A stretch of 63,099 nt of DNA, the filler included, from Reclinomonas americana ATCC 50394 (lineage: Eukaryota): NCBI GenBank assembly GCA_048213135.1. It is 4 parts of 3 records of this genome, joined end to end, with 100 filler letters (N's around TTAATTAATTAA, not from the genome) between each part and the next. Parts side by side here need not be neighbours in the genome. Positions count along the whole stretch, not along the records: positions 16,021 to 39,497 come from PS015235.1; positions 39,598 to 57,857 come from PS015235.1; 2 more parts are not named here. The stretch is one strand, 5' to 3'. Shown piece after piece: positions 35,625 through 47,376 of the stretch. Under the pieces are notes generated by a model. It was not told the DNA's origin, searched no databases, and saw only the letters and a program-made list of their open reading frames with translations. Each line of letters begins with the position of its first letter. Position 1 is the first letter of the stretch. A program made the position numbers and the translations under genes.

Positions 35625-36722
35625 ATGTCTCTCGCTCCTTCTCGGCCCTCTCTCCTCCCTTTCAAACCTCTGCTTGGGCACACAAATATAGTGATGTCCG
35701 TCACCGTCACTCCCGATGGCCGACACATCATCAGTGGGAGTTATGACAAGACCGTGCGTGTGTGGTTGCTGGCAAGAGGTGAGGAAGTGCGACGTTTGGA
35801 GGGCCACGCAGCGATGGTGGAATCTGTCGCCGTCACTCCTGACGGGAAGCACATCGTGAGCTGCTGCCGCGACTCAGCCATTGTGTGGTCGCTGGAGAGC
35901 GGAGAAGAGGTGCGACGATTGGAGGGACACACTGGTTGGGCGTGGTCCGTTGCCTTCACGCCCGACGGTCAACACGTTATCAGTGGAGGCAGTGACAAGA
36001 CTGTGCGTGTGTGGTCTTTGGCAAGTGGAGAAGAGGTGCGACGACTGGAGGGGCACACTGAATGGGTGAGGTCTGTCGCCGTCACTCCCACTGGTGAGTT
36101 CATTGTGAGTGGTAGCAATGATCGCACTGTACGAGTGTGGTCACTCGCGAGTGGCGAGGAGGTGCGACGATTGGAGATGCACAATGCAGTGGTGACGGTT
36201 GTTGTCACTCCCGATGGTGAGCACATTCTCGGTGGCAGTAGGGGAATTGTGCGAATGTGGTCACTGGCGAGCGGCGAGGAGGTACGAGAGCTGAAATTAC
36301 ACAGTGCATGGGTGCACGTGACATCACTTGCCATCACTCCTGACGAGCGGCACGTTGTGAGTGCGAGTTGGGATACCACAGTGCGAGTGTGGTCACTGGC
36401 GAGTGGAGAAGAAGTGCGACGGATGGAGGGGCACACCAGCCAGGTGTGGTGTGTCGCTGTCACTCCCGATGGTGAGCACGTTGTGAGTGGCGGCAAGGAC
36501 AACGCCGTGCGAGTGTGGTCCACTCCGTGCGGTCTCGCGCGCGAAGAGCTCCACACAGCGTTAGCTGTGATGTGCGCTGTTCAGGAGATGCAGCTGGCTG
36601 CTGACGACGAAGGTGACTCTCGATGCCTGCCAGAGATGGTGCTGCGCTGCTTCATTGTCGAGGATGCCGAGGTCATCGTGTATCGGCGCAGCGTAGACCC
36701 ATGGCCAGAGTCGCATTTGTGA
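35625..36722 (+). CDS. WD40 array copy 1: intronless 7-blade WD40 + conserved C-terminal tail (365 aa)
   Basis: MSLAPSRPS start, seven GH..V.SVAVTPDG..IVSG..D.TVRVWSL repeats, tail EEL..A..AMCAVQEMQL...CLPEMVLRCFIVE. Confidence 0.92.
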   Translation: MSLAPSRPSLLPFKPLLGHTNIVMSVTVTPDGRHIISGSYDKTVRVWLLARGEEVRRLEGHAAMVESVAVTPDGKHIVSCCRDSAIVWSLESGEEVRRLEGHTGWAWSVAFTPDGQHVISGGSDKTVRVWSLASGEEVRRLEGHTEWVRSVAVTPTGEFIVSGSNDRTVRVWSLASGEEVRRLEMHNAVVTVVVTPDGEHILGGSRGIVRMWSLASGEEVRELKLHSAWVHVTSLAITPDERHVVSASWDTTVRVWSLASGEEVRRMEGHTSQVWCVAVTPDGEHVVSGGKDNAVRVWSTPCGLAREELHTALAVMCAVQEMQLAADDEGDSRCLPEMVLRCFIVEDAEVIVYRRSVDPWPESHL

Positions 36723-36914
36723 ATAGTGAGTGAGTGTCTTGATTCTTTCTTTTTGTTCTCTCGTGGTGGTTTGTCAAGTAAAATGCAGTTGTGAAGGAGT
36801 CTGGCAGGATGCATGTTCCCTTCTGGCAGCTTTGCTCACAGCTTCGACAAGCGTCCGTGTCCCATAAAATCACCTTCGTTTTATTTCCACTTGCACGCCC
36901 TCACACCGTTCACC
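36723..36914 (+). promoter_or_regulatory. Conserved intergenic spacer of the WD40 array (candidate 3'-end/promoter signals), repeated between copies
   Basis: Motifs TTGTCAAGTAAAAATGCAG.TGTGAAGGAGTCTGGCAG and CTCACAGCGTCGACA...GTGTCCC recur in the ~190-240 nt spacers. Function is inferred from position only. Confidence 0.45.
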
Positions 36915-38003
36915 ATGTCTCTCACTCCTTCTCGTCCCTCTCTCTTCCCTTACAAGTGCCCCGTGGGTCACACAGCTGCGGTCACGTCTGTCGCCGTCAC
37001 ACCCGATGGCCAACACATCGTGAGTGGCAGTCGCGACAACACCGTGCGCATGTGGTCACTGGCAAGAGGGGAGGAAGTGCGACGCTTGGAGGGACATACT
37101 TTCTGGGTGACGACTGTCGCTGTCACTCCCGACGGCAAGCGCATTATCAGCGGGAGTGCTGATGAGACTGTGCGTGTGTGGTCGCTAGAGAGCGGAGAAG
37201 AAGTGCGTCGGTTGGAAGGGCACACTAACGGGGTGTGCTCTATCGCCGTCACTCCCGACGGTGAGTTCATTGTGAGTGGGAGTGACGACGGGACTGTGCG
37301 CGTGTGGTCTCTGGCAAGTGGAGAAGAGGTGCGACAACTGGAGGGACACGCTAACGGGGTGTGCTCTATCGCCGTCACTCCCAATGGCGAGTTCGTAGTG
37401 AGTGGCGGCGATGATCGCACTGTACGAGTGTGGTCACTTGCGAGTGGGGAGGAGGTGCGACGATTGGAGATGCACAGTGCAGTGGTAACGGTTGTTGTCA
37501 CTCCCGATGGTGAGCACATTCTGAGTGGAGCCGCCAATGGAAGAGTGAACATGTGGTCGCTGGCGACCGGCGAGGAGGTGCGAGAGCTGAAAGGGCACAG
37601 CGAATGGGTGACATCACTTGTCATCGCTCCCGACGAGCGGCACGTTGTCAGTGCGAGTTGGGACACCACAGTGCGAGTGTGGTCACTGACAAGTGGAGAA
37701 GAAGTGCAACGGATGGAGGGGCACACCGGTAGGGTGTGGTGTGTCGCTGTCACTCCTGACGGTCAACACGTTGTAAGTGCAGGTACGGACAAGGCCGTGC
37801 GAGTGTGGTCCACTCCGTGCGGCCACGCGCGTGAAGAGCTCCACACAGCGCAAGCGGCGATGTGCGCTGTGCAGGAGATGCAGCTGGCCTTCGAAGATGG
37901 CGACCCTCGATGCCTGCCAGAGATGGTGCTGCACTGCTTCATTGTCGAGGAGGCCGAGGCCATCGGATATCGGTACAGCGTGGACCCCGACATGCATTTG
38001 TGA
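36915..38003 (+). CDS. WD40 array copy 2
   Basis: Same architecture, intact ORF from MSLTPSRPS. Confidence 0.92.
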   Translation: MSLTPSRPSLFPYKCPVGHTAAVTSVAVTPDGQHIVSGSRDNTVRMWSLARGEEVRRLEGHTFWVTTVAVTPDGKRIISGSADETVRVWSLESGEEVRRLEGHTNGVCSIAVTPDGEFIVSGSDDGTVRVWSLASGEEVRQLEGHANGVCSIAVTPNGEFVVSGGDDRTVRVWSLASGEEVRRLEMHSAVVTVVVTPDGEHILSGAANGRVNMWSLATGEEVRELKGHSEWVTSLVIAPDERHVVSASWDTTVRVWSLTSGEEVQRMEGHTGRVWCVAVTPDGQHVVSAGTDKAVRVWSTPCGHAREELHTAQAAMCAVQEMQLAFEDGDPRCLPEMVLHCFIVEEAEAIGYRYSVDPDMHL

Positions 38004-46088: not shown

Positions 46089-46290
46089 ATGATGAGAGGG
46101 TGTCTTGATTCTTTCTTTTTGTTCTTCCATGGTGGCTTGTCAAGTAAATGCAGTTGTGAAGGAGTCTGGCAGTTCTCTTCTGGCAGCATGCGGTGTGCGT
46201 CGCAACAAAAACCCGTCTTGCAGCTTCGACACAAGTCGTCCGTGTCCTGCAAATCATTCCCTCCCTCTCAGTGCGCACACACAGTTCAGC

Positions 46291-47376
46291 ATGTCTCTCG
46301 CTCCTTCACGCCCTTCTCTCTTCCCTTTCAAGTGCCTCGTGGGTCACACTGCTGCGGTCATGTCTGTCGTCGTCACTCCCGATGGCCGACACATCGTCAG
46401 TGGCAGTCATGACAAGACCGTGCGTGTGTGGTCACTGGCAAGTGGCGAGGAAGTGCGGCGTTTGGAGCACGAAGCGATGGTGGATTCTGTCGCTGTCACT
46501 CCTGACGGGAAGCACATCGTGATCTGCTGCTACCTTACAGTGCGCGTGTGGTCGCTGGAGAGTGGAGAAGAAGTGCGGCGGTTGGTGGGACACACTGATT
46601 GGGTGAGAACTGTGGCCGTCACGCCCAATGGCGAGTTCATAGTGAGTGGAAGCTACGACTGGACTGTGCGTGTGTGGTCGCTGGCAAGTGGAGAAGAGGT
46701 GCGACGACTGGAGGGACACAATGAAAGGATTAGATCAGTCGCCGTCACTCCCAATGGTGAGTTCATTGTGAGTGGCGGCGATCACACTGTGAGAGTGTGG
46801 TCACTTGTGAGTGGCGAGGAGGTGCGACGATTGGGGATACACAGTGTAGTGCGGACGGTTGTTGCCACCCCCGACGGTGAGCACATTCTGAGTGGCGGTG
46901 AGAATGAAATCGTGCAAATGTGGTCGCTGGCGAGCGGCGAGGGGGTGCGAGAGCTAAAAGGACACGGCGACTGGGTGACATCACTCGTCATCGCTCCTGA
47001 CGAGCGGCACGTGGTGAGTGCGAGTTGGGACGGCACAGTGCGAGCGTGGTCACTGGCGAGCGGCGAAGAAGAAGTGTGGCGGATGGAGGGGCACGCTGGC
47101 CAGATGGTGTGGTGTGTTGCCGTCACGCCCGATGGTCAACATGTTGTGAGCGGGGGAGATGATATGACAGTACGAGTGTGGTCCACTTCGTGCGGCCTCG
47201 CGCGCGAAGAGCTCCGCGCAGCCCGAGAGGCGATGCGCGCTGTGCAAGAGATGCAGCTGGCCATTGGTGAAGGTGACTCAAGATGCCTGCCAGAGATGGT
47301 GGTGCGCTGCTTCATTGTCGAGGAGGCCGAGGTCGTCATGTATCGGCGCAGCGTGGACCCGGACTCGCATTTGTGA
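46291..47376 (+). CDS. WD40 array copy 9
   Basis: Same architecture, intact ORF. Confidence 0.92.
   Translation: MSLAPSRPSLFPFKCLVGHTAAVMSVVVTPDGRHIVSGSHDKTVRVWSLASGEEVRRLEHEAMVDSVAVTPDGKHIVICCYLTVRVWSLESGEEVRRLVGHTDWVRTVAVTPNGEFIVSGSYDWTVRVWSLASGEEVRRLEGHNERIRSVAVTPNGEFIVSGGDHTVRVWSLVSGEEVRRLGIHSVVRTVVATPDGEHILSGGENEIVQMWSLASGEGVRELKGHGDWVTSLVIAPDERHVVSASWDGTVRAWSLASGEEEVWRMEGHAGQMVWCVAVTPDGQHVVSGGDDMTVRVWSTSCGLAREELRAAREAMRAVQEMQLAIGEGDSRCLPEMVVRCFIVEEAEVVMYRRSVDPDSHL

Follow-up and report, generated by a model that had tools for sequence, protein, structure and literature searches.

A tandem array of nine WD40 propeller genes in Reclinomonas americana with a variable top face and a conserved C-terminal tail

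Nine WD40 genes arranged in tandem were found in a 63,099-nucleotide stretch of DNA from Reclinomonas americana ATCC 50394 (assembly GCA_048213135.1), which is referred to here as the window. The genes encode a propeller followed by a constant tail, and the members of the array have probably diversified at the ligand-binding face of the propeller under positive selection, with exchange between copies. We consider it reasonably probable that the genes form a bounded tandem array of diversified binding adaptors that share a docking tail.

Organization of the array

Nine head-to-tail WD40 units on the plus strand occupied exactly positions 35625-47376, for which the initial annotation had proposed a tandem array of at least nine WD40 genes. 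Six units were complete and three were interrupted by gaps. All nine copies were intronless, and no stop and no frameshift was present in the readable parts of any of them, at a mean synonymous difference of 0.34 per site. The complete open reading frames (ORFs; c1, c2, c3, c6, c8 and c9) comprised 361 to 365 codons. The units and the spacers described with them are as follows.

35435-35624, plus strand: spacer 5' of c1 with a pyrimidine tract, ..AAAACGCAG and the GGAGTCTGGCAGG block (from the spacer alignment)
35625-36722, plus strand: c1, complete, 365 amino acids, seven-blade WD40 propeller and tail, ending in -SHL
36915-38003, plus strand: c2, complete, 362 amino acids, blade 3 like blade 4, ending in -MHL
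38237-39328, plus strand: c3, complete, 363 amino acids, 26 of 35 top-face residues common to c1 and c3
39498-39597, no strand: artificial spacer of 44 N, TTAATTAATTAA and 44 N between c3 and c4
39600-40259, plus strand: c4, partial, blades 4-7 and tail, blades 1-3 lost at the join
40479-41581, plus strand: c5, interrupted at 41170-41189 by 20 N that hide about one codon, early tail end (..RRSGP, then stop)
41822-42913, plus strand: c6, complete, 363 amino acids, the copy used for the structure model, tail coded from about 42722
43702-44804, plus strand: c7, interrupted at 44613-44632 by 20 N that hide about two codons, a 574-N gap at 43109-43682 upstream
44994-46088, plus strand: c8, complete, 364 amino acids
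46291-47376, plus strand: c9, complete, 361 amino acids, last gene of the array

The six complete intergenic spacers (189-240 bp) were conserved and contained a pyrimidine tract, ..AAAATGCAG and the GGAGTCTGGCAGG block. They differed from one another in frame and by 1- and 2-base indels, and because of these indels they are considered non-coding. The gene start is taken to be the conserved ATG of MSL(A/T)PSR. An extension of the genes at the N-terminus was rejected: the frames 5' of this ATG are open, but the spacers show the indels and frame differences just mentioned. The array is bounded, because a conserved spacer precedes c1 and none like the array spacers follows c9. In the spacer alignment, the sequence downstream of c9 did not align to the array spacers, and the sequence beyond the conserved spacer 5' of c1 was unrelated to them.

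The pyrimidine tract, followed by ..AAAATGCAG, stands at the start of the spacers (e.g. 36723-36914 and 46089-46290), about 130 bases 5' of the ATG, and a near-invariant GGAGTCTGGCAGG block lies 3' of it in each spacer. The tract together with ..AAAATGCAG looks like a 3' splice acceptor. Such acceptor-like spacers raise the question of an intron in the 5' untranslated region, or of polycistronic transcription with trans-splicing.

Propeller fold and location of the variable residues

Pfam scans of c1 and c6 matched PF00400 (WD40) with 237.8 and 242.0 bits (cut-off 27), in 6 and 5 stretches, respectively. Both scans returned WD40-type families exclusively and no NACHT domain, in agreement with the initial annotation. 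The protein length of 361-365 amino acids is made up by the propeller and the tail. An AlphaFold2 (AF2) model of c6 showed a seven-blade propeller with a predicted local distance difference test score (pLDDT) above 90 over approximately residues 20-300 and 27 strands, including an N-terminal strand at residues 14-17. The tail was modelled as two helices, at residues 302-326 and 335-357, with a pLDDT of about 70, a value that was reached after four distant relatives had been added to the alignment. Seven blades were present in all six complete copies.

A Foldseek comparison gave as the best PDB match 5yzv, a WD40 domain from Thermomonospora, with 38% identity, a target-normalised TM-score of 0.96 and a root mean square deviation of 1.1. 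The other best solved matches were symmetric designer propellers and WDR5. The best 120 of 3001 matches (E ≤ 0.001) in a sequence search with the propeller were bacterial or metagenomic WD40 proteins with 27-56% identity, and most of these 120 did not cover the tail. Mean amino acid identity between the blades of one copy was 0.49-0.57, and 0.62-0.75 for blades 1-4 alone. By the cut-offs given in Hu et al. 2017 (at least 0.7 internal identity for highly repetitive and at least 0.4 for moderately repetitive WD40 proteins; PMC5587647), the array proteins belong to the moderately repetitive class and stay below the cut-off for the highly repetitive one.

Blade positions were numbered over 42 residues from the G of the GH motif. 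Strands a, b, c and d of the c6 model spanned positions 6-11, 17-22, 26-31 and 37-42, so that positions 1-5 correspond to the d-a loop and positions 23-25 to the b-c turn. In the WD40 topology the top face of the propeller consists of the d-a loop and the b-c turn, and the bottom of the a-b (TPDG) and c-d (LASGE) loops. Amino acid change was concentrated at positions 4, 5, 7, 23 and 25 of each blade. The nonsynonymous difference, pooled over 36 gene pairs as were the Nei-Gojobori estimates below, was 0.418 for the 35 codons at these positions and 0.098 for the remaining 258 codons of the propeller.

A constant scaffold with a few hypervariable positions had been described in the initial annotation from strings of residues in blade 1 (NIVM, AAVT, DTVM, NTVS, GTVS, GPVM and AAVM with YDK, RDN, YDN, FDG, HDE and HDK) and blade 3 (GWAW, NGVC, GWVH, EEVY, QGVH, QGVR and DWVR). 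All of these strings were present as written, and the variable sites, which had been assigned to the top face, mapped to the d-a loop and b-c turn of the predicted propeller. The five-residue top-face signature was distinct in 52 of the 58 scorable blades, and each protein had its own set. It is confirmed that the pattern of variation among the nine genes is far beyond chance and not uniform.

Selection at the top face

Nei-Gojobori estimates of the ratio of nonsynonymous to synonymous substitution rates (dN/dS, omega) were 0.90 for the five variable positions (bootstrap interval 0.55-1.44), 0.23 for the other propeller codons (0.18-0.29) and 0.47 for the tail. Since the averaging of pathways inflates synonymous counts at codons that have changed several times, likelihood codon models were applied in our own Goldman-Yang implementation. 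A comparison of models M2a and M1a gave twice the log-likelihood difference (2ΔlnL) as 36.3 with a single tree. When eight segments were each given their own tree, the value was 11.0 (p 0.004), and 4.6% of the sites were assigned an omega of 2.6. In a fixed-class model omega was 1.84-1.95 at positions 4, 5, 7, 23 and 25 and 0.27 elsewhere.

When all 42 positions were scanned with per-blade trees, omega exceeded 1 at six positions only: 3 (1.08, not significant), 4 (3.64), 5 (1.24, not significant), 7 (1.73), 23 (2.16) and 25 (1.79). Positions 4 and 23 passed a correction for 42 tests, and the remaining 36 positions had an omega of at most 0.65. For positions 5, 7, 23 and 25, a set fixed in advance from the literature, omega was 1.67 (p 3.5e-5 against 1), which was little altered when the poorly aligned blade 5 was left out. 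The bottom loops had an omega of 0.18. The site-model check suggested in the initial annotation accordingly gave likelihood omegas of 1.67-1.95 at the variable codons against 0.27 elsewhere, with variation that was not spread uniformly, so that the refuting condition named there did not apply. Purifying selection acts on the scaffold, on the bottom loops and on the tail, and in each blade four to five positions of the top face change at a rate equal to or above the synonymous one.

The same variation could arise from relaxed constraint alone, in redundant dosage copies or old, settled paralogs whose top face is merely unconstrained. The pairwise omega of 0.90 with an interval spanning 1 agrees with this, as does the general variability of top-face positions in WD40 proteins, and site-model tests can be inflated by recombination. 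The class omega of 1.67-1.95 was nevertheless different from 1 by likelihood ratio (p ≤ 3.5e-5), and positions 4 and 23 withstood the multiple-test correction. Fourteen data sets simulated with an omega of 1 and re-analysed in the same way gave a mean of 1.00 and a maximum of 1.28, so that none of them reached 1.3. An omega above 1 was also found in the 31 closest blade pairs (scaffold identity at least 0.9), with a top-face dN/dS of 1.35, or 1.81 against the scaffold dS. We regard relaxed constraint as a poor candidate for the whole explanation.

History of the copies

In a tree of the blades, blades 1, 4, 5, 6 and 7 each formed one clade across the genes. Blade 2 formed a grade containing the blade 6 clade. 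Blade 3 was scattered and stood with blade 4 in c2, c8 and c9 and beside blade 1 in c7. No clade in the tree of array copies brought together blades from different positions within one gene. Identity between blades was nearly the same within and between genes, with a difference of at most 0.013 in all 21 pairs of blade positions. Because belonging to one gene does not make blades more alike, the seven-blade plan predates the gene duplications, without concerted evolution within genes.

The approximately unbiased (AU) test rejected the whole-gene tree in seven of eight segments (p 0.002-0.041); for the tail p was 0.072. The closest partners of a copy shifted from segment to segment. These conflicting histories indicate exchange between copies at about the scale of a blade, and the genes are therefore mosaics. 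The synonymous difference between copies averaged 0.34 and the synonymous distance was about 0.45, and the copies are therefore not recent.

Chimeric assembly of similar repeats might lie behind part of the mosaicism or of the copy number, given the 25 N runs in the window, the 20-N gaps in two genes and the artificial join inside the array. The copies, however, differ in 14-26% of nucleotides per blade, which suffices to assemble them without ambiguity; no gap occurs in any of the six complete genes, and the conflicts between trees include complete genes. Such an artefact is very unlikely.

The constant C-terminal tail

All nine proteins share a tail of about 60 residues after the propeller, with the core motif RCLPEMVLRCFIVE. 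Pfam scans of five tails with E up to 10 gave two noise matches only (E 0.16 and 0.21, unrelated families), and a PDB profile search with the tail at the same limit gave no match. No usable tail match was obtained in the protein atlas. A word-based search for the tail in longer proteins was negative, a result of little weight. Pattern searches produced 54 matches but no relative in metagenome contigs of the Joint Genome Institute and 47 matches but no relative in viral contigs. Two Ruminococcus albus loci among 21 prokaryote pattern matches were dismissed as chance, the match being a 23-residue stretch inside an unrelated ORF without WD40 repeats.

A profile of the nine tails was compared with 1,835,955,588 representative proteins and gave seven matches at E ≤ 0.001. 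Four of these, P0123 (E 5.5e-26, 116 amino acids), P0126 (2.0e-5, 381 amino acids), P0128 (1.6e-4, 394 amino acids) and P0129 (2.9e-4, 147 amino acids), matched at least 56 of the 66 profile positions at or near the C-terminus, and P0129 extended 17 residues beyond the match. All four were propeller proteins or fragments of such proteins. The other three (P0124, P0125 and P0127) were not accepted as members of the family, as their matches covered only 11-28 positions of the profile and consisted of 4-7 repeated stretches; P0127 proved on inspection to be a short-repeat protein. P0126 and P0128, which are ordinary non-repetitive propellers, gave full-length alignments with the array proteins (22-29% identity), and for this reason the family is older and wider than the array. 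Within the core motif, C-F and E were invariant in 12 of 12 sequences.

P0123 is a translated expressed sequence tag of Reclinomonas americana (EukProt), and so a relative of the array genes is transcribed. It was 60-63% identical to eight array copies over 108-117 residues, which is below the identity among the copies, and it aligned to c7 in two pieces (67% and 55%). Judged from these matches, the constant tail pointed out in the initial annotation is a conserved domain that recurs after propellers, in four further proteins. A literature search of titles and abstract openings found no description of a family combining a propeller with the RCLPEMVLRCF tail. The best-supported view is that the propeller with its two-helix tail represents a rare, so far undescribed eukaryotic family.

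At the nucleotide level, the 17 codons of the core motif RCLPEMVLRCFIVEEAE (e.g. 42821-42871 in c6) had a synonymous difference of 0.089, compared with 0.22-0.54 in the adjoining segments. This low value suggests either recent homogenisation or constraint on the nucleotide sequence.

The tail ended in -SHL in five of the eight intact C-termini (c1, c3, c6, c8 and c9; e.g. 42905-42913) and in -MHL or -MQL in the remaining ones; c5 stops early. The -SHL ending was not common to the four distant relatives of the tail. The ending fits the consensus of the type 1 peroxisomal targeting signal (PTS1).

The combination of a variable binding domain with a short constant helical box is also the architecture of F-box/WD40 and WD40/SOCS-box (WSB) proteins. 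The array proteins could accordingly be substrate receptors of a ubiquitin ligase, with the tail as an F-box- or SOCS-box-like adaptor box leading into one E3 core and the top faces selecting the substrates. An LP-x-x-hydrophobic-L-x-x-hydrophobic stretch of the tail, read by eye from the alignment, loosely resembles the start of an F-box, and a Cul4-like cullin gene (18445-24471) lies on the assembly piece of the array's first genes, 11 kb upstream of them, a nearness that may be due to chance. Expanded F-box families of nematodes and plants are similar to the array in their lineage-specific tandem expansion and in selection on the substrate-binding part. Thomas is said to have reported in 2006 on the expansion of a positively selected F-box family. 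Expanded and positively selected F-box families are described by Ma et al. 2021 (PMC8120010). The tail, in contrast to such receptors, matched neither the F-box nor the SOCS-box model nor any other Pfam family in the scans with E up to 10, and it had no sequence match in the PDB. The box would moreover be C-terminal, and shorter after the LP than an F-box. We therefore judge a role as ligase receptors to be unlikely.

Comparison with other WD40 families

The Podospora anserina NWD/HNWD genes het-e, het-d and het-r encode STAND/NLR proteins (signal transduction ATPases with numerous domains/NOD-like receptors) with highly conserved WD40 repeats. This family was reportedly also treated by Chevanne in 2010. 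According to Paoletti 2007 (PMC1805685), the Podospora NWD genes undergo concerted evolution and contain 2-15 repeats together with NACHT/HET domains; four codons are under selection at the top of the propeller, where (7,9) belong to the d-a loop and (25,27) to the b-c turn. Positions 7, 9, 25 and 27 of that numbering (PMC1805685) correspond to positions 5, 7, 23 and 25 of the array. The array genes resemble the Podospora genes, as described in that source, in having a near-constant blade scaffold and diversifying selection on residues of the d-a loop and the b-c turn. Sequence exchange among family members is a further likeness.

In other respects the two systems differ. The array proteins have neither a NACHT nor a HET domain, and their blades are anciently distinct, cluster by position and show no concerted evolution, with nucleotide identities between blades of 0.53-0.73. 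The number of blades was seven in six of six complete copies (one assembly). Diversity lies between nine tandem genes and not between the repeats or alleles of one gene. Of the likeness to HET-E/HET-D claimed in the initial annotation, the use of the same top-face positions held, but concerted evolution was absent, the blades clustered by position, and the internal identity was 0.49-0.57. The array is not a member of the Podospora NWD system, and the likeness consists solely of the constant scaffold and the selected binding face.

Highly or moderately repetitive WD40 proteins, which occur in prokaryotes and 'lower' eukaryotes (PMC5587647), likewise have consensus-like blades; structures of this kind are 5yzv and, from Nostoc, 2ymu. 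The array differs from the proteins covered there (PMC5587647) in that it encodes single stand-alone propellers with a eukaryote-only tail in tandem genes.

Horvathova et al. 2021 (PMC8134430) described Gcp1-3, Pex7-like WD40 proteins of jakobids, heteroloboseans and malawimonads. These are stand-alone WD40 proteins confined to a few protist lineages including Reclinomonas, some of them with a predicted PTS1 (PMC8134430). The array proteins are also stand-alone WD40 proteins, and five of their eight intact C-termini end in -SHL. As presented in that source (PMC8134430), Gcp1-3 are single conserved orthologues, while the array is a variable set. Gcp1-3 were set aside as a lead after a motif search in which the tail motifs were absent from the searchable supplementary text of PMC8134430.

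Proposed function of the array

If the top face is the ligand-binding site, the ligands of the nine proteins would differ, or would be variants within a single class. Through the constant tail all nine would dock to one common partner or place, and the array would thus act as a panel of adaptors that is encoded in the germline and has a single output in common.

Several points weigh against an array of adaptors diversified by selection. Top-face positions are the least constrained and most variable ones in WD40 proteins generally. The pairwise estimate for the five positions spans 1, so an omega above 1 depends on the method, and with per-blade trees a posterior above 0.8 was obtained at only two single sites. 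The likelihood tests assume a single synonymous rate, and their trees were built from segments of 41-59 codons of paralogs that recombine, conditions under which such tests are known to give inflated results. Given the age of the copies, selection may have acted soon after duplication and then ceased. In the Pfam and PDB scans, nothing of known function was recognisable as a relative of the tail. The assembly is a draft in which the array is interrupted by an artificial join, and the sequence leaves the adjacency of c1-c3 and c4-c9 unproven.

As a special case of the adaptor array, the propellers might sense foreign (viral, bacterial or symbiont) or allogeneic proteins and the tail might trigger a common response, similar to the immune-like receptor repertoire proposed in the initial annotation. 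The selected top-face positions are the same as in the Podospora NWD genes, the genes form a tandem array with exchange between copies, the family is rare and restricted in lineage, and 52 of 58 blade signatures are distinct. On the other side, no NACHT/STAND and no other signalling or death domain was found in the Pfam scans (c1, c6 and five tails), concerted evolution and variation in blade number were absent, the paralogs are old, and nine fixed genes make a small repertoire. An immune-like function is doubtful on this balance.

In NLR-like proteins of fungi and bacteria, WD40 propellers that combine a constant scaffold with a variable top face under selection are known to serve as sensors. 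The same variable-face signature is present here without an NLR core, in whole tandem genes, and tied to a conserved tail domain for which databases give no description. It is conceivable, if hardly to be expected, that the array is a germline recognition system without a NOD domain: a bank of WD40 sensors, diversified by blade exchange and selection and joined through one new tail to a common effector, would tell apart foreign or prey proteins, or kin. If this were true, it would be a convergent counterpart of the WD40-based NLR sensors of fungi and bacteria in a deep-branching eukaryote, a free-living bacterivorous protist. To our knowledge, almost nothing has been reported on recognition or defence in this protist lineage.

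The adaptor reading, which we prefer, would define a new adaptor family if the partner of the tail and the ligands were found. The same finding would be a test of whether the principle of a variable propeller with a constant output has arisen independently in deep-branching eukaryotes. Even a modest interpretation adds a conserved domain and clean positive selection at structurally predictable sites.

Other features of the window

The draft sequence of the window is interrupted by 25 N runs and has a G+C content of about 55-58% around the array. Identical 100-base spacers (44 N, TTAATTAATTAA and 44 N) were found at 15921-16020, 39498-39597 and 57858-57957. As the same spacer is present three times, the window joins separate pieces; the TTAATTAATTAA spacer is an all-frame stop linker marking the joins, and the window consists of at least four pieces. 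The features outside the array are as follows.

5485-10284, minus strand: 1599-codon open frame containing at least 13 near-identical units, each about 97 residues long, and a C-terminal part without the repeat
18445-24471, plus strand: Cul4-like cullin gene in five ORF pieces in three frames, in profile order, with a 553-N gap inside
47426-48400, plus strand: tandem repeat of about 304 bp, three to four copies with 64-98% identity, directly after c9
49259-50630, both strands: oxysterol-binding-protein matches to profile positions 101-136 (minus strand) and 304-363 (plus strand), flanking 20-N gaps
54295-56283, minus strand: Thr/Ser/Ala-rich open frame of 662 codons without a family match
59462-60139, plus strand: fragment of an OTU-like cysteine protease

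The cullin gene covered positions 103-576 of the Cullin profile and the neddylation domain, and its best relatives, from a green alga and diatoms, were 30-41% identical. Because its pieces lie in different frames and in profile order, the organism has introns. One of the two oxysterol-binding-protein pieces may be wrongly oriented. The repeat after c9 contained GAC/GAA runs that read as long Asp/Glu stretches. The units of the open frame at 5485-10284 scored as fibronectin type III or PhoD_N-like (Pfam fn3, 196.7 bits).

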